Virus record (IMG/VR): IMGVR_UViG_2529292836_000020
Strand: one strand, 5' to 3'
DNA: 7,092 nt
From: a virus
Taxonomy: Duplodnaviria; Heunggongvirae; Uroviricota; Caudoviricetes
Below the pieces are notes generated by a model. The model was not told the origin of the DNA. It saw only the letters and a list, made by a program, of their open reading frames with translations, and made no database searches. This document shows positions 1 through 7,092 of the stretch, piece by piece. The position numbers and the translations under genes were made by a program. Positions within the stretch are counted from its first letter, which is position 1. Every line of letters starts with the position of its first letter.

Positions 1-1131
1 TCAAATGACCAGTTTTTTCCACTCCTTACCGCGTACATCGTTGTAAATATCGGTCATTTTTTGATTCGAATGACCTAGCAAAATTTTGGTATCAACCCCC
101 TGCTCTCTGAACAATCGCTCTGATAAAGATCTCTGCTCATGGAAAGAGGGTGGGGTGCCATTAGCACGCCAGTTGTAATCCACAGAATCCCGGGCTTTTT
201 TAAATGCAACTGTTAATGTTGCTGGCTTAACCATCCCGCCGCGCTTAGCTGTCCCTTTCGCGTGATGGTGGTGCAATAGCCACGGACTAAGAACACAATC
301 GCGGCAGGATGACACTACATCATCCAGGGTGAGATTTAATTTATCGCAACGCAGAGCCAGAGGGATGGCAATCCGGGTTCCTGTTTTTTGCTGTTCGACA
401 TGAAGATAACCATCCCGGATATCCGAAAATTGCATTTTGCAAATATCTGAAAGGCGCTGGCCTGTCATCAGTGCCAGCAGCATACCGCGCTGTAAAAAGT
501 AACCATCCTTTTCCGCTGCGTTATAAATCATCATCCACTCATCAAAAGTCAGTCGCTGTCTTGATATCCGCACCTGCGGTTTTTTTGCCGATTCTGCAGG
601 GTTAAAGCCTGGCGGGACATCGCCCGTTTGCTGAGCTTCCCGGAAAACATCGATCAGTACCTTCCTGAAAATTTGTCCCATTCTGTTATGTCCTCTGGCC
701 TTGTACTCTTCCAGTACTGATACCACATCTTTTACGGTTATGGCATCTAACGGTCTGGTGCCAAAACGTTCATCAAATACCCTGAGAGGGGCCGCTTTCT
801 GTTTCAGCGTGTTGAGTTTGATCTCGCCGTTTTCATATCTTTCCTGTTGAATTTTTCTGTAATTATTCAGAAAAATGGTAACGGTTGATGAACCGCCGGT
901 ATCACTAATAATTTTCTCCTGCAGACTGAGCATTTGTTCCATTTGCTGCCGGGCAAGACGGCTGTTCGCTTCTGCTGCAATAGTTTCTGCCAGTTTCTGG
1001 TCAATACTGCCGAGACCGTGATTTTTGCCTGTTATGGGATGCCTGTAACGCCAGTAAACTTTGTTATTTCTTTTGTCAAAATACGGAGATAATCCCGGAA
1101 CATTGGTTTTATATTTTCGCGGGCGCGCCAT
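1..1131 (-). CDS. int: Phage integrase, tyrosine recombinase (lambda Int family), 376 aa, complete
   Basis: ATG at 1131..1129 preceded by GAGGA 9 nt upstream; stop TGA at 3..1. C-terminus SFHEQRSLSERLF...LLGHSNQKMTDIYNDVRGKEWKKL closely parallels the lambda Int catalytic C-terminus (H-x-x-R box, LLGH and catalytic Tyr motif); R in ALMTGQRLSDI fits box I. Confidence 0.93.
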   Translation of the reverse strand: MARPRKYKTNVPGLSPYFDKRNNKVYWRYRHPITGKNHGLGSIDQKLAETIAAEANSRLARQQMEQMLSLQEKIISDTGGSSTVTIFLNNYRKIQQERYENGEIKLNTLKQKAAPLRVFDERFGTRPLDAITVKDVVSVLEEYKARGHNRMGQIFRKVLIDVFREAQQTGDVPPGFNPAESAKKPQVRISRQRLTFDEWMMIYNAAEKDGYFLQRGMLLALMTGQRLSDICKMQFSDIRDGYLHVEQQKTGTRIAIPLALRCDKLNLTLDDVVSSCRDCVLSPWLLHHHHAKGTAKRGGMVKPATLTVAFKKARDSVDYNWRANGTPPSFHEQRSLSERLFREQGVDTKILLGHSNQKMTDIYNDVRGKEWKKLVI

Positions 1132-1357
1132 CTTCCAGTATCCTCTTCAAAGCAGGGTGATCTGTGGCGATCACCTCCGGCTTGTTTACCATTCCGACAA
1201 AGCGAGCTTGCGGATCCACTCGCCAGCGTCTTCCAACTTTTTTGGGGAGAGGAAATATCATTCCGGCTTTAGCGTATTTACTTAACGTACTCGGAGTTGG
1301 GACCGGTTCACTGAATTCCTCTTTTGCCCACTCAGTGAGCAGAATAAGTCTTGCCAT
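1109..1357 (-). CDS. xis: Excisionase (lambda Xis-like), 82 aa
   Basis: Small ORF directly upstream of int whose 3' end overlaps the int start by 23 nt, as in lambda xis-int. Translation MARLILLTEWAKEEF...IFPLPKKVGRRWRV resembles the lambda Xis pattern (LTLQEWNARQ...IFPPPVKDGRE). No strong SD, so the exact start is uncertain. Confidence 0.75.
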   Translation of the reverse strand: MARLILLTEWAKEEFSEPVPTPSTLSKYAKAGMIFPLPKKVGRRWRVDPQARFVGMVNKPEVIATDHPALKRILEDGAPAKI

Positions 1358-1421
1358 GAGCGTCGTTCGCTAATCATGGTCGCCGCCACTATAGCTGGTG
1401 GGCAACGACCGGGGTTGAACA

Positions 1422-2738
1422 TTAAAAATCAGCCTGATTCGGGATCAGTTTTTGCCAGATAACTGAAACGTATTTTGCCTGGTAACGGGCGTCATCAAGT
1501 GCATTATGGCGCTCACCTTCGAATGGAATAGCCGTTCTGGCATCGAAGTCTATGGCTTTCCCCAGCTCAACGATTGTGCGTACATCGCGATCGTTGTAGT
1601 AACGCCACGGGCAGGGGATCCCCTGCCGTTCGTATGAACGGCGCAAAATCGTGTTGTCGAAGTTGGCTCCATTTCCCCAGACCTGAACAAAAAATTCACC
1701 GGAGTTTTCGTCGATAAATTCCCGCAATTGTAACAGTGCATCATCTAACGGGATTTCATCGGTCATAATGGCAGACTGCGCTTCACGTGATTGCTTCAGC
1801 CACCTTTTAATGACGTCACGATCAATGACTCCGCCAGCAGTTTCCAGATCGATAGTCTTACTAAATTCCGGTCCCATATCTCCGGTTTGCGGATCGAAAA
1901 ATATTGCACCTATTGAGATAATCGGAGCATCAGGATTTTTTCCCATGGTTTCAAGGTCGATCATTAGATGGTCACACGTCCTACTGGCGGATGTGATTTC
2001 GTGATGACTGTTCACCTTAATTGAGTGATCTGCCGTCTCGCCAGTTTCATTATCGCTATTGTGATGCTGATCGCTACCAGCATTCTCCTTGTGTGGATGT
2101 TCAGCGCCTTCCATTTCCTTCGGATCATTTTCCTGAACTTCAACCTGATACTCTTCATCGAATGTTTCCTGGTATGTTGCGTCGCCCATCACCGCGCCAC
2201 AATCAGGGCAGTTGCCGCCGCCGGTCTGACCGCAGGCGGTGCAGATCTTTTCCGGTTCCTGTTGCACTACTGGTTCAGGTTGTTTCGTTTCTGGCTCGTT
2301 TTGTAACGCATTTGGGCTGTTTTGTTCCGCTTTCTGGTCGTTCTGTTCCGATTCTTGCTGGTTCTGGTTCACAGAATCGCGGGTTTCAATCCCCTTCACC
2401 CATTTCGGATCATTCGGGTCGCTAATCCCTGCAACAAATTCTCCGCGAGAGGCAGCAAGCAACTTATCGGCGTCAGGCTGGCTGATATTGGCTGCCTGCA
2501 TAATTTTGTTTACTTCGTCAGCGGTAACTTTTACCGGCTCTGGTTGTGCGGTCGTGTCAGATGCACCAGTATTTTGTTGTGAACCTGAGTATGTACCGTT
2601 TTTGCGGGCGAAATATTCTTCTTTCGTGATTTCAGTAGCCCCGGCAGCCAGCGCCTTATTCCAGACCAGAAAGTTTGTTTGCGCGACCGTATTTTTCGCC
2701 ATCCTTGTCGGTGAAGAGGAAGTAGAACGGCCCTTCAC
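1422..2738 (-). CDS. Intact C-terminal ORF of the exonuclease VIII-like gene (438 aa from GTG at 2738; contains the DEDDh 3'-5' exonuclease domain)
   Basis: Longest uninterrupted ORF in the window. Listed separately because an annotation pipeline may call it as a stand-alone exonuclease. First in-frame ATG at 2702 has no spaced SD. Confidence 0.55.
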
Positions 2739-3389
2739 GCTCTACAGATGGTTCGACTTCCACTTTGCATTCGGTTTTTTCGTTGTCCGGAATTGCCGTT
2801 TCCACTGCATCAGTTTCTGGTACTGGCGACGAGAGAGTATCAGTTGCGCTCTGATTTCTTCCTTCATCTTCAAACACGCCCTTTGTAGTCAGGTATTCAG
2901 TAATGTATTTGTTCAGTGCCACAGGGTCTTTGTGAATGTCGATCGGACGTTCACGGACAAGGCCAAAAATAGTCTGGCGGTCGTAGCGAAGGGCATCAGG
3001 CTGTTTGCGCATTGATGCCGAGATACGCTTCCAGTCTTCGCGTCGTTGTCGATAACTTCATTTTTTGCCCAGCGATGGATGCTGCCGTCAATGTTTCCGG
3101 CATCCACATCACCAGGCCAGAGAGCGTAGGCCAGTTCGTCATCCAGTGTTTTCCATGTCTGCTTGTATTCGCGATGAGTGGCAGCAATGACCGGGCTGAT
3201 TTTTCCTGTTGAATTTCAGTGTTCTGTTGATTGGCTCTGGCGCGGGCGAGATCAACAACAGACGTGTATTTTCCGGTTTCCTTGCGTTCACCTTCGCGAC
3301 GTTTTTTCCAGATGCGCATCTCTGCCTGAATTTCGGGCCATTTGGCACCAGGCTTACATTTATGCTTAACCCACCCGATGGCATGCAGC

Positions 3390-3887
3390 TTAAGTCCGGA
3401 TACATGGCGTTAACTTCTGCATTTTCATCAACGCTTCAACGATATGTCCGTCGAATGTTGCCATGTCTTCCTGCAACATTCCTGGCCTAATCACCATATC
3501 AACGGTGATGTTTTCACATGTGTCGAACTTAACCATGACAGCGTTCTGTACTTCAGGGGCCAGCTTGTCAAAAGTGACGTTCATCGGATCTGATTCAGTC
3601 TCAACCGGGACAAAGGAAGCTGACTCCTCATCCCAGCGGTTTTCCTGCATATATTCAGCATCCCAGGAATCGAGGGCAGGGCGGGGTATACCGGGTTTAT
3701 CCTCGCAAACAAGAAATTTATAAGCGCAGTCCTGAGCAGCCGGATAATGTTCCAGGAATTGCCAGTGAAATTTTGCGCGGGCGCGACGTTCATCACCGGC
3801 TTCAATGGCAGTGGCTACAGCGACTGCACCTTCTTCCTTTATTGCCTGTTCGTCCGGAATAGCGGCGCAAATAAAGACTTTACTCAT
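3390..3887 (-). CDS. N-terminal fragment ORF of the exonuclease VIII-like gene (165 aa)
   Basis: ATG at 3887 with GAGGT 9 nt upstream; ends at an in-frame TAA at 3392..3390 created by the first frameshift. Translation matches my recollection of the N-terminus of K-12 YdfE (unverified). Confidence 0.55.
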   Translation of the reverse strand: MSKVFICAAIPDEQAIKEEGAVAVATAIEAGDERRARAKFHWQFLEHYPAAQDCAYKFLVCEDKPGIPRPALDSWDAEYMQENRWDEESASFVPVETESDPMNVTFDKLAPEVQNAVMVKFDTCENITVDMVIRPGMLQEDMATFDGHIVEALMKMQKLTPCIRT

Positions 3888-3967
3888 GTTGTTTTAACCT
3901 CATTACAGATTTAAGGGTGAACAAATCCCTGCCATTGCTGGCATATAAAAATGAAACCGGATATTAA

Positions 3968-4171
3968 TTACGGTGCTGTTTTAAGTCCTGCCGGGATTTC
4001 GTTATTATCCATGTGAATAACTTTATCGACCGGATAACAGTTACCGGGAATTTTCTGTTCTGCTGCGGCAGCCATGCATTCTTTCATTGAACCGTAAATG
4101 TCAATAACCATGTCAACAGGCTCGCCAGTATTAAGAAAAACAGTCAGAGTGAGGGCAATAGCAGTATTCAT
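3968..4171 (-). CDS. ydfD: YdfD-like small protein (67 aa; Qin prophage lysis protein family)
   Basis: ATG at 4171..4169 overlaps the dicB stop as ATGA, with AAGGA 8 nt upstream. Hydrophobic N-terminus MNTAIALTLTVFLNTG. Position immediately downstream of dicB matches the Qin operon order. The ORF track's longer start at 4225 would overlap dicB by 58 nt and is rejected. Confidence 0.8.
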   Translation of the reverse strand: MNTAIALTLTVFLNTGEPVDMVIDIYGSMKECMAAAAEQKIPGNCYPVDKVIHMDNNEIPAGLKTAP

Positions 4172-4356
4172 TGCCAGTATCCTTTTTGCATCGGGCGTAA
4201 ACGGGCCAGCATTGAAAGAATGCATATTTTATTTAATAGCTCCCGTTCGTATTTTCTCTTATTAATGGCATCTTCAGTAAATACAGGGTTACTGATTCTG
4301 ACACCAATTTCAAAACAACCTTCAGACGTATTGACGTTTGGTAATAACGTTTCCAT
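4168..4356 (-). CDS. dicB: Cell division inhibitor DicB (62 aa)
   Basis: ATG at 4356 with GAGGA 7 nt upstream. Translation METLLPNVNTSEGCFEIGVRISNPVFTEDAINKRKYERELLNKICILSMLARLRPMQKGYWQ is near-identical in length and sequence to E. coli K-12 DicB as I recall it. The GTG start at 4452 in the ORF track lies inside the processing stem and is rejected. Confidence 0.88.
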   Translation of the reverse strand: METLLPNVNTSEGCFEIGVRISNPVFTEDAINKRKYERELLNKICILSMLARLRPMQKGYWQ

Positions 4357-4373
4357 TATCGCGTCCTCAACAA

Positions 4374-4530
4374 TGAATTTTGTGATGCGGTGCCTGGTGC
4401 CTCCAGGTGACGTTAACCAGTTAACAATTAACGCCGGATACAGAGAACCCACCCATAAGCCAATACGGAAGTCAACTGGTTTTAACTGTTCCGCGTGCGC
4501 TCAGCCGCATTCACCGCATCACAAAATTCA
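4374..4530 (-). promoter_or_regulatory. Perfect 19-bp long-range inverted repeat (4374-4392 and 4512-4530) forming a predicted RNA stem that encloses a 119-nt loop; candidate RNase III processing site
   Basis: Plus 4374-4392 tgaattttgtgatgcggtg is the exact reverse complement of plus 4512-4530 caccgcatcacaaaattca. On the minus-strand transcript the 5' arm begins 4 nt after the DicF U-tract and the 3' arm ends 17 nt before the dicB start codon. Confidence 0.5.
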
Positions 4531-4534
4531 CTTT

Positions 4535-4577
4535 AAAAAGGGCGGCAGAGCAGTCACGGAGTAAAACTGATACCGCC
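4535..4577 (-). terminator. Intrinsic terminator-like hairpin plus U-tract at the DicF 3' end
   Basis: Stem GGCGGUA ... UGCCGCC followed by C and UUUUU (plus 4535-4539 is aaaaa). Confidence 0.55.
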
Positions 4578-4592
4578 AAACGTCACCAGAAA
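4540..4592 (-). ncRNA. dicF: DicF small RNA (53 nt; ftsZ-targeting antisense sRNA of the dicB operon)
   Basis: Minus-strand sequence UUUCUGGUGACGUUUGGCGGUAUCAGUUUUACUCCGUGACUGCUCUGCCGCCC followed by UUUUU matches the DicF sequence as I recall it, in the expected position between ydfC and dicB. Confidence 0.88.
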
Positions 4593-4904
4593 ATTGATAA
4601 CAGAGGGCGTTGCAGCGGGGTTGTCACTTAAGCGTATGGTCAACCTGACAACCCGGTGTCCTCAACGGGGGAAGGAATAACCCCGCCATACTTACCGCCG
4701 CACCATTTCGCGGATTGCCACAACCGGAAGCGCACGGTCGACGAAAATTTAACGACAGGCTATCTATGAACCAGCTACCTCGCCGTGCGCTTTCGCGTTA
4801 TGGTCTGACTTTGCAGGGAAATATCCTTTCAGTAAACTGTCTGTGCCGGATGCTCACCCGTGGAGAACTCCTTACTTACCAACCTTAGCTTCGTTGGTTA
4901 GCTA

Positions 4905-5123
4905 TTAACGCGGGTATGTAATCATTCTGGCAATGCTTAATGCCGCTGCTTTTTCCAGATTAGTGATATCCTGCTCCAGAGCGGACAGATTTTCAGCCTG
5001 CTTAGCCCTGGCTTCATTGGCCCATTTCAGATCCTGCGCTGCATTAATTTTCTGGTACGTCCACTCATAAAGTTCATCATCGGTATAGTCTGGCGCGATG
5101 ATGACGGGTTCTCGTTTCTGCAT
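4905..5123 (-). CDS. ydfC: YdfC-like small protein (72 aa)
   Basis: ATG at 5123 with GAGGA 7 nt upstream; stop TAA at 4907..4905. Length and position (third gene of the operon, upstream of DicF) match Qin ydfC. Confidence 0.82.
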   Translation of the reverse strand: MQKREPVIIAPDYTDDELYEWTYQKINAAQDLKWANEARAKQAENLSALEQDITNLEKAAALSIARMITYPR

Positions 5124-5152
5124 ACTGATTCCTCGCGGTGCTGTTTCGCTTA

Positions 5153-5281
5153 TCAGCCGTTAGATTTTGCCGAACTGGAAAGCGCCTGTTTAAATTCGTT
5201 GAAGCTGAGAGCTTCTTCGCCTTCGGCAAGACCTTCGAAGTATTCTTCGTAAGCCTTTTCCATGATTGTGTCGAAATCCAT
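5153..5281 (-). CDS. ydfB: YdfB-like small acidic protein (42 aa)
   Basis: Not in the supplied ORF track (below its size cut-off). ATG at 5281..5279 with AGGTGA 5 nt upstream, one nucleotide after the ydfA stop; translation MDFDTIMEKAYEEYFEGLAEGEEALSFNEFKQALSSSAKSNG; stop TGA at 5155..5153. Fills the gap between ydfA and ydfC; length matches Qin YdfB. Confidence 0.72.
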   Translation of the reverse strand: MDFDTIMEKAYEEYFEGLAEGEEALSFNEFKQALSSSAKSNG

Positions 5282-5282
5282 A

Positions 5283-5438
5283 TCACTCACCTGAGTTTCT
5301 TTCCAGCCAGCGACGGGCACCATTTTCGGTTTTAAACGTTTTGCTTTTGGTATACGTCATCGCGGTGAACGTACCGTCCTGGTTGGGGAACACGCCACAT
5401 ACCAGAGATTCGCTGTTGCCAAGATCGATAGTATCCAT
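5283..5438 (-). CDS. ydfA: YdfA-like small protein (51 aa)
   Basis: ATG at 5438 preceded by GAGG 5 nt upstream; translation MDTIDLGNSESLVCGVFPNQDGTFTAMTYTKSKTFKTENGARRWLERNSGE. The upstream in-frame ATG at 5519 (78 aa) has a weak SD; the true start could be either. Confidence 0.75.
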   Translation of the reverse strand: MDTIDLGNSESLVCGVFPNQDGTFTAMTYTKSKTFKTENGARRWLERNSGE

Positions 5439-5616
5439 GCTGACCTCATTTCCCCTTAACGCCGGGGTAGCGGAACAAAAACCTGCTGCATAGTTATTAA
5501 AGTTGAACCCTGCCGTCATGTTCTTACGCCTCGGGCTGGCTACTTAACCCCTGACCACTGTCTGGTAACTCGAAGTATTGCCCTGCATTCTGTGGGGCGG
5601 GGTGGGTGGCAGGTAT

Positions 5617-5660
5617 ATAATGTACTTTGTGTTCATTGTTGTAAAGTACATTTAGTACAT
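5617..5660 (-). promoter_or_regulatory. Predicted leftward promoter of the dicB operon (-35 TTTACA at 5645..5640, 17-nt spacer, -10 CATTAT at 5622..5617) overlapped by operator-like hexamers
   Basis: Sigma70-like hexamers on the minus strand. Plus-strand TGTACT at 5621-5626 and AGTACA at 5645-5650 and 5654-5659 overlap the -10 and -35; AGTACATTT is a tandem direct repeat. Confidence 0.5.
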
Positions 5661-5735
5661 TTTGTGTGTAAAAAAATGAGATGGGATAAAGTGAAGCACA
5701 AACCCGGAGGAAGGCGCTACCGGATTTATGCTGGT

Positions 5736-6155
5736 TTAAGAGGCTTTTTGTTTTTTCTTTCGTGCTAACTCTTCGTAAATTGCATTGTACTTCTGTTTTT
5801 TCTCTTCAAGAGTTTTTAAAAGTTCATCTGTCTCACTGTCAGGGAGCTCGTCCAGAAGGTCAATGATGATTTTTTGTCTTGGATTTAACTCCTGATAGAA
5901 ACGTACCTGTCCACTTTCTTCTGTGTCCTCTCCCAAAAGATAGGTTGGTGTTGTTCCTATTAGTGTTGCTAATTCCCTTAATTTCTCCCGGCGAGGAATT
6001 GTTTCGCCATTAAACCATTTGCTAACCGCTTTTGGTGTTAATTTCATTCGACGGGCAATTTCTGCCTGCCTTCCATGTTGTTCATAACCAGCGTTTTCAC
6101 AGGCTAGCGCAAGCCTACTGGCGAACTCTTTACGCGCTTTATCTTCATGAACCAT
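5736..6155 (-). CDS. Prophage repressor, XRE-family HTH (DicA/CI-like), 139 aa
   Basis: ATG at 6155, stop TAA at 5738..5736. N-terminal HTH region (GRQAEIARRMKLTPKAVSKWFNGETIP) and C-terminal segment IIDLLDELPDSETDELL resembling the DicA C-terminus as I recall it; divergent from a cro-like gene. Confidence 0.9.
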   Translation of the reverse strand: MVHEDKARKEFASRLALACENAGYEQHGRQAEIARRMKLTPKAVSKWFNGETIPRREKLRELATLIGTTPTYLLGEDTEESGQVRFYQELNPRQKIIIDLLDELPDSETDELLKTLEEKKQKYNAIYEELARKKKQKAS

Positions 6156-6234
6156 AAGTTCAATGATATTCGCTCTTGAATGTACTGTCAGTTCTGTTAT
6201 AGCATGTACTCAAAGTTCACATTGTGAGGGTGAT
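6156..6234. promoter_or_regulatory. Divergent promoter/operator region between the repressor and cro-like genes
   Basis: Minus strand: -35 CTGACA (plus 6186-6191), 17-nt spacer, -10 TATCAT (plus 6163-6168), then 7 nt to the repressor ATG, implying a leaderless or near-leaderless transcript. Plus strand: -35 TTGAAT (6176-6181) and extended -10 TGtTATAGC (6195-6203); SD GAGGG before the cro-like ATG. TGTACT at 6181-6186 and 6205-6210, 24 bp apart. Confidence 0.5.
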
Positions 6235-6489
6235 ATGAACCAGAAAACACTTGAAGATGTAATCAAAACTGTTCGCGTTGCTGTTGTGGCCGACGTTTGT
6301 GGTGTCAGCCAAAGAGCAATCTATAAATGGATGGATAACGGAAAATTGCCTCGCACAGAATATACCGGCGAAACAAATTACGCTGAAAAAATCGCTCTTG
6401 CATCAAACGGATTATTTTCTGCCGATGCAATTTTAACTATTGGCAGGAATAAAACTACTACGAAAAAGCTGATGGGAGTTGATTCATGA
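6235..6489 (+). CDS. Cro-like HTH DNA-binding protein (84 aa)
   Basis: ATG at 6235 preceded by GAGGG; HTH segment DVCGVSQRAIYKWMDNGKLP. The ORF-track start at 6163 lies 7 nt from the divergent repressor start, inside its -10, and is rejected. Confidence 0.8.
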   Translation: MNQKTLEDVIKTVRVAVVADVCGVSQRAIYKWMDNGKLPRTEYTGETNYAEKIALASNGLFSADAILTIGRNKTTTKKLMGVDS

Positions 6490-6911
6490 AAATCAAGCAT
6501 GAACACATCCGCATGGCGATGAATGCCTGGGCGCATCCGGACGGCGAAAAAGTACCGGCTGCGAAAATTACCAAAGCGTATTTCGAGCTGGGAATGACGT
6601 TCCCGGAACTGTATGACGACAGCCATCCGGAAGCCCTGGCTCGCAATACTCAGAAAATTTTCCGCTGGGTGGAGAAAGACACCCCTGATGCGGTTAAAAA
6701 AATTCAGGCGTTGTTACCAGCTATCGAAAAAGCAATGCCACCTCTGCTGGTGGCCCGAATGCGCAGTCATAGCTCAGCCTATTTTCGGGAACTAGTGGAG
6801 ACGCGGGAACGACTGGTGAGAGACGCTGATGATTTTGTCGCAGTGGCGATCGCTGGTTTCAACCAGATGAATCGTGGTGGCCCTGCAGGAAATATTGTGG
6901 CTGTGCATTGA
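6486..6911 (+). CDS. YdaT-like (CII-like) regulatory protein, 141 aa
   Basis: ATG overlaps the cro-like stop as ATGA (6486-6489). N-terminus MKIKHEHI and position right after the cro-like gene fit the YdaS/YdaT-type module; family assignment is from memory. Confidence 0.75.
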   Translation: MKIKHEHIRMAMNAWAHPDGEKVPAAKITKAYFELGMTFPELYDDSHPEALARNTQKIFRWVEKDTPDAVKKIQALLPAIEKAMPPLLVARMRSHSSAYFRELVETRERLVRDADDFVAVAIAGFNQMNRGGPAGNIVAVH

Positions 6912-6982
6912 CTCGCAATATTCATACCGGATCGCTTCCGGCAATTTGTGAGTAAAAAGATTCGGTATCAAAAGAGGTGAGT

Positions 6983-7092
6983 ATGGCTAACGCCTGGCTC
7001 AGATTATGGCATGACATGCCAAATGACCCTAAGTGGCGAACAATTGCCAGGGTGTCAGGGCAGCCAATTGCAACAGTGATGGCAGTGTATAT
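6983..7092 (+). CDS. 5' end of a replication-region gene (possibly YdaU/DUF1376-like), truncated by the window edge
   Basis: ATG at 6983 with AAGAGGTGA SD at 6972-6980; open to the window end, translation MANAWLRLWHDMPNDPKWRTIARVSGQPIATVMAVY. Family assignment is tentative. Confidence 0.5.
   Translation, partial: MANAWLRLWHDMPNDPKWRTIARVSGQPIATVMAVY

Follow-up and report, generated by a model that had tools for sequence, protein, structure and literature searches.

The question raised by this locus is whether a prophage exonuclease gene has been broken into pieces in the bacterium that carries it, or only in the sequence that was deposited. The window, meaning the whole stretch of 7,092 nucleotides that was analysed, comes from a Rac-like lambdoid prophage beside ompW, of which it forms the left arm. 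In this stretch the reading frame of the exonuclease gene hops five times, as the original prediction had claimed, while an N-terminal ORF (3390-3887) and a C-terminal ORF (1422-2738), both on the minus strand, stay open at either end. Two readings had been put forward at the time: decay of the gene, or an artefact of homopolymer indels limited to one region. The comparisons described here, which are comparisons of sequence, point to a different origin. The frameshifts are very probably collapsed-repeat consensus errors in the draft assembly GCA_000354895.2, produced from two near-identical prophage copies of the gene, and reflect neither a pseudogene nor a homopolymer error.

Besides the genes collected in Table 1, the prophage arm in the window holds homologues of ydfD and dicB, and its cI-like and cro-like regulators form a divergent pair. 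A full-length gene for the DicF antisense sRNA is found at 4540-4591 on the minus strand (Rfam RF00039, 76.7 bits against a gathering score of 48). It sits between the dicB-side genes and ydfC, as it does in the Qin prophage of K-12.

Some 3,500 complete E. coli genomes contain most of the exonuclease segment and have it annotated as an exonuclease gene, and every relative examined has an uninterrupted ORF of 2472 nt (823 aa). In the related complete genome of NCCP 13717 there are two such intact 2472-nt copies, one in the ompW prophage (copy 1) and one in a prophage at potC (copy 2). Copies 1 and 2 of the gene are about 95% identical in closely related genomes. Each of them is nearly invariant over independent assemblies, with 0-2 differences in 3.4 kb, and in a collection of about 15 billion proteins the copy-1 and copy-2 proteins are found on up to 43 and 28 contigs, respectively.

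Table 1. Features of the window and single-base events in the exonuclease gene, in window coordinates; copies 1 and 2 are the ompW-prophage and potC-prophage versions.
Feature	Position	Strand	Remarks
Integrase	1-1131	-	ompW-site prophage; single-copy sequence identical to relatives
Excisionase	1109-1357	-	ompW-site prophage; single-copy sequence identical to relatives
Two-copy zone	1413-4476		about 93% of aligned columns identical between the ompW and potC copies; alternating patchwork in the window
Exonuclease gene	1422-3887	-	2466 nt in the window, 2472 nt (823 aa) intact; from alignment to intact genes of six genomes
Three separate 1-nt deletions within 11 nt	3477-3487	-	relatives AGCGCGCAGGAATTG, window AGGCCAGGAATG; net -3, in frame, ISAQEL to IRPGM
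1-nt deletion, frame hop 1	3419-3420	-	missing base is at a position with T in copy 1 and C in copy 2
1-nt deletion of G, frame hop 2	3394-3395	-	GGAGCTT to GGACTT; site invariant in all alleles examined
1-nt deletion, frame hop 3	3214-3216	-	A4 to A3 on the gene strand; relatives have A4
1-nt deletion, frame hop 4	3042-3043	-	missing base is at a position with T in copy 1 and C in copy 2
1-nt insertion of A at 2659/2660, frame hop 5	2656-2660	-	makes a TAA stop at 2656-2658
Single-copy prophage sequence (ydfABC, cI-like and cro-like regulators, ydaT)	4600-7092		identical to relatives

The indels were placed by nucleotide alignment of 1422-3887 to six intact 2472-nt alleles. Compared with these, the gene in the window is 6 nt short and differs by eight single-base events. 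That the pieces belong to one gene, as had been supposed, is borne out by the translation: when the frame is followed from piece to piece, it matches the copy-1 protein with 100% amino acid identity over residues 285-412 and 95.6% over residues 413-823. The hops expected near 3421, 3394 and 3043 were correctly placed, and the alignment puts them at 3420/3419, 3395/3394 and 3043/3042. The other two were not. The hop near 3200 had been blamed on a T5 run at 3200-3204, and this run is identical in all relatives; the true site is 3214-3216. The loss near 2695 had been assigned to a second T5 run at 2693-2697, which is unchanged as well. The true event is an insertion at 2659/2660, so both the site and the sign were wrong: the sequence at this point is GGAAAAAG in copy 1, GGATAAGG in copy 2 and GGAATAAGG in the window.

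With the insertion in place, the frame hops are -1, -1, -1, -1 and +1. Because they sum to -3, the two outer ORFs lie in one frame (3887 and 2738 are both 2 modulo 3). The idea that every junction is a 1-nt loss fails on the same arithmetic, since five losses could not return the outer ORFs to one frame, while -4 + 1 = -3 does. The in-frame trio of deletions at 3477-3487 was absent from the earlier list. The trio was also considered as a natural in-frame allele, and this was rejected: none of the complete genomes searched has these deletions, and the best of 6,607 places in 3,875 genomes aligns at 95 of 98 columns with no mismatch and still shows all 3 gaps.

In GenBank the gene is split into four CDSs, EMW84118-EMW84121. 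They are named "hypothetical protein", "putative exonuclease VIII...", "putative exonuclease" and "exonuclease family protein", and all are singletons in protein databases. One could suppose that such pieces are separate functional proteins, or that they are joined by programmed ribosomal frameshifts, and the open N- and C-terminal ORFs are what this idea has in its favour, and nothing else. It is barely credible here: the five hops have no common slippery motif, the relatives that were found have an uninterrupted 823-aa ORF at these sites, and the broken state is private to one draft assembly.

That assembly can be named exactly. The fragment ORFs are exact matches to EMW84118-EMW84121 of E. 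coli 2731150, each found on one contig only, and the window makes up the final 7,092 bases of contig AQEB01000098.1 (89,607 bp) of E. coli ETEC 2731150, GCA_000354895.2. The contig ends one base further. Its end falls about 180 nt after ydaT, within the prophage gene that follows, which in relatives is a hypothetical gene of 1071 nt, and an end at this place past ydaT suggests another repeat boundary, common to a second prophage. Strain 2731150 is a Bangladeshi ETEC isolate of ST3931 (AQEB00000000, reads SRR446754), and its genome belongs to a set for which 100-bp reads from the Illumina HiSeq 2000 were assembled by Celera Assembler (PMC5469772). The authors of that study remark that Celera Assembler treats contigs of anomalous coverage specially, and they describe a re-assembly with SPAdes (PMC5469772). 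Exact-protein look-ups with the copy-1 and copy-2 proteins returned other strains and assemblies only, and no second assembly of 2731150.

The platform bears directly on the reading that invokes homopolymer indels of the 454, Ion Torrent or Nanopore style in a stretch of low coverage. This reading can point to one indel that shortens an A4 run and to two others that, relative to copy 2, are readable as CC to C. Against it stands the use of the Illumina HiSeq 2000, by which a homopolymer-prone platform is excluded. Of the eight indels, a single one, at 3214-3216, lies in a run of at least three identical bases, so the claim of a short homopolymer or doublet at every junction is only loosely true, and the suspected T5 runs are intact. 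Moreover, the roughly 10.9 kb of single-copy sequence around the two-copy zone contain no indels, and the errors co-localise with that zone and with its variant sites. Platform error is therefore very improbable. What survives of the earlier suggestion is that there is an artefact and that it is confined to one region; its homopolymer nature does not survive.

Central to the question is the composition of the gene itself. Between 1413 and 4600 there are 199 substitution-type columns at which copies 1 and 2 differ, and the window has the copy-1 base at 78 of them, the copy-2 base at 116 and neither base at 5. A three-way alignment resolves the gene into 16 alternating tracts of copy 1 and copy 2. 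Further along the window, the ydfD (DUF1482) and dicB region at 3825-4476 is the copy-2 version almost throughout, and copy 1 resumes at about 4479. A 9-nt stretch at 4467-4475 in the window is a copy-2 feature that is missing from copy 1.

This patchwork was looked for elsewhere and was not found. Over 1850-2650 the best match among 5,426 complete E. coli genomes is 97.1%. Over 2600-3560 the best complete E. coli genome matches at 99.0%, which is about what eight gap columns alone would cost. Four repaired versions of the mosaic protein have no counterpart among the roughly 15 billion proteins, and a search of the phage collection for an identical record gave 96.8% at best. The possibility that the mosaic is a natural circulating allele was rejected on the 97.1% figure and on the absence of the repaired proteins. 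As for the allele of 2600-3560 that comes closest, it lies in a prophage at a tRNA-Ser site in the complete genome of E. coli CE0007a. The integrase of that prophage is annotated as frameshifted, an unrelated case in which the frameshift may be real or artefactual.

The private changes were then set against the map of the two copies. All eight indels fall within the two-copy zone, and seven of them lie in an 839-nt stretch where the copies are most alike (10 differences). The deletions at 3420/3419 and 3043/3042 fall exactly on columns where the copies differ (T versus C), and the insertion at 2659/2660 is exactly at a point where the window switches from copy 1 to copy 2. Of four private substitutions in the zone, three (2397, 4061 and 4124) show a third base, found in neither copy, at columns where copy 1 and copy 2 disagree; these look like consensus miscalls that would alter the called proteins. 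Altogether, about 6 of 12 private events are on or at variant columns, where 7% would be expected (binomial P ~1e-4). Third bases and bases lost exactly where the parents differ point to a consensus of mixed reads, since recombination would follow either parent. The indels at 3395/3394 and 3214-3216 and the trio at 3477-3487, which make up five of the eight, are at sites that are identical in both reference copies.

Outside the zone the sequence is clean. The relatives used for the flanks were the ETEC O25 genomes F5505-C1, ATCC 43886 and NCCP 13717. Positions 1-1800 and 4600-7092 of the window show no differences from relatives (F5505-C1 is identical over 1-1800), and all differences are concentrated in 1800-4600. 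The chromosomal flank, 6.6 kb long, has 2 substitutions and 0 indels relative to these genomes.

It is on this evidence that gene decay has to be judged. Resident lambdoid prophages recombine with one another, and in a real pseudogene the ompW-prophage gene would have been patchily converted from the potC copy, with the eight 1-nt indels arising then or simultaneously and leaving the gene dead. Such a history would fit the fact that the indels are present in the deposited sequence, and it would fit the known recombination between resident prophages. It could also take in the five indels at copy-identical sites, which do not obviously come from a mixture of reads. Even so, it is unlikely. Indels make up about one tenth of spontaneous mutations, and at that share the tally in the gene, 8 private indels to 1 private substitution, would have P ~8e-8. 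In their single-copy flanks the window and its relatives are identical, and therefore there has been almost no time for decay. The conversion would require 16 tracts in 2.5 kb, and private third bases exactly at copy-variant sites are not a product of recombination. Finally, nothing of this kind is shared with any other assembly, among 5,426 complete genomes and 15 billion proteins. The earlier suggestion of decay is thus not upheld.

A related case is that the sequence is correct as deposited, and that patchy gene conversion between the prophages came with miscorrections and 1-nt indels in a single burst, both at heteroduplex mismatches and close to them. This is quite improbable. If the deposited sequence were true, it would document a natural case in which recombination between diverged repeats was mutagenic and killed a prophage gene in one step. 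That would be an unusual instance of recombination-associated frameshift mutagenesis, and the evidence is strongly against it.

The preferred explanation, a consensus drawn from two collapsed copies, would work as follows. Celera Assembler is an overlap-layout-consensus assembler that tolerates a few percent of mismatch, and it may have piled the 100-bp reads of both copies, which are ~1-5% apart, into one layout. A consensus taken column by column would then pick whichever copy dominates at each variant site, and a patchwork would result. If the layout spread a mismatch over two half-gapped columns, or if the pile was otherwise inconsistent, the call would be a gap, a surplus base or a third base. 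In the cell, both copies of the gene would most likely be intact. The exonuclease gene is probably not the only chimeric part of the contig. The second copy appears in the window as copy-2-specific bases at 116 sites, and the potC copy is known as a separate locus from the related NCCP 13717.

Mixing of the two copies accounts for the two deletions at variant sites, for the insertion at the junction and for the third-base calls. The main gap in this account is the five indels at copy-identical sites. They are not directly explained, and would need a third copy, another copy-2 allele in this strain or a poor local layout. Stripped IUPAC ambiguity codes were considered as a source of the bases lost at variant sites. 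They are possible for 3420/3419 and 3043/3042, and were rejected as they leave the remaining six indels unexplained, along with the numerous variant sites that have an ordinary base call.

The method does not lead to collapse in every case, since copy 2 came out intact in sibling assemblies made with the same pipeline. Three drafts that apparently come from the same sequencing project, judging by the accession series, have an intact copy 2 (GCA_000356785.2, GCA_000356945.1 and GCA_000356765.2). In them, contigs end 1.4-1.9 kb (GCA_000356945.1 and GCA_000356765.2) or about 4 kb (GCA_000356785.2) upstream of the copy-2 gene. With contig ends so near copy 2, the repeat family fragments those three assemblies and does not collapse in them.

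In practical terms, EMW84118-EMW84121 are four bogus CDSs that most likely stand for a single intact prophage exonuclease of 823 aa, and pseudogene counts or inferences about prophage decay would be wrong if they were based on this draft. The case also provides a signature of collapsed-paralog errors that can be read without the reads: a private mosaic of two copies, indels and third bases on paralog-variant sites, and flawless single-copy flanks. This is almost certainly an ordinary assembly error of low biological interest, and the suggestion of an artefact was right for another reason than the one proposed.

What the intact protein would do is a separate matter, and the label "exonuclease VIII-like" given to the gene holds only in part. 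The disrupted zone covers approximately residues 134-412, upstream of the exonuclease domain. That domain is a full-length Rv2179c-like DEDD 3'-5' exonuclease domain (PF16473) at residues 642-813 of the intact protein, scoring 213-215 bits against a cut-off of 27. The NCBIfam model for exodeoxyribonuclease VIII, NF007259, gives the intact protein 284 bits against a cut-off of 1269, and the match is limited to model positions 260-603 of 877, from protein residues 237-626. Pfam reported no RecE-type nuclease domain in the intact protein at E<=0.001. The YdfE_N and YdfE_C families (PF27430 and PF27432) appear among precomputed Pfam matches as N-terminal domains in the 165-aa fragment and in intact homologues; hmmscan against a local Pfam copy reported neither. 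The middle of the protein does resemble RecE, as the label implied. By its predicted catalytic domain, the protein is a DEDD exonuclease of the Rv2179c-like type and not a true member of the RecE family.

Three known systems are useful for comparison. The first is RecE of the Rac prophage. The gene in the window holds the same place in the early-left operon of a Rac-like prophage, and the middle of its protein is like the non-catalytic middle of RecE. The two part at the C-terminus, where the nuclease part of the RecE model is unmatched by the window protein. The RecE nuclease has 5'-3' polarity and a fold different from that of DEDD exonucleases, whereas the catalytic domain predicted here, PF16473, is of the DEDD 3'-5' type, with another fold and polarity.

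The second is the 823-aa exonuclease of ompW-site prophages such as PPompW (WP_074504043.1 and WP_276377066.1), the N-terminal part of which is YdfE-like. Here the order of the locus is the same, with int, xis, exonuclease, ydfD and dicB by ompW, and the Rv2179c-like C-terminal domain is shared with the window gene. The difference is that eight 1-nt indels interrupt the window version, which is also a mosaic with the copy of a second prophage.

The third comparison is with collapsed or chimeric near-identical repeats in short-read drafts, and it is the one that speaks to the question of the broken frame. As in such drafts, the window alternates between two lineage copies that are about 95% identical, its errors stay within the repeat, with an excess at paralog-variant sites, its single-copy flanks are clean, and its contig ends nearby in prophage sequence. 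It differs from them in that five of its eight indels fall where the two known copies agree.
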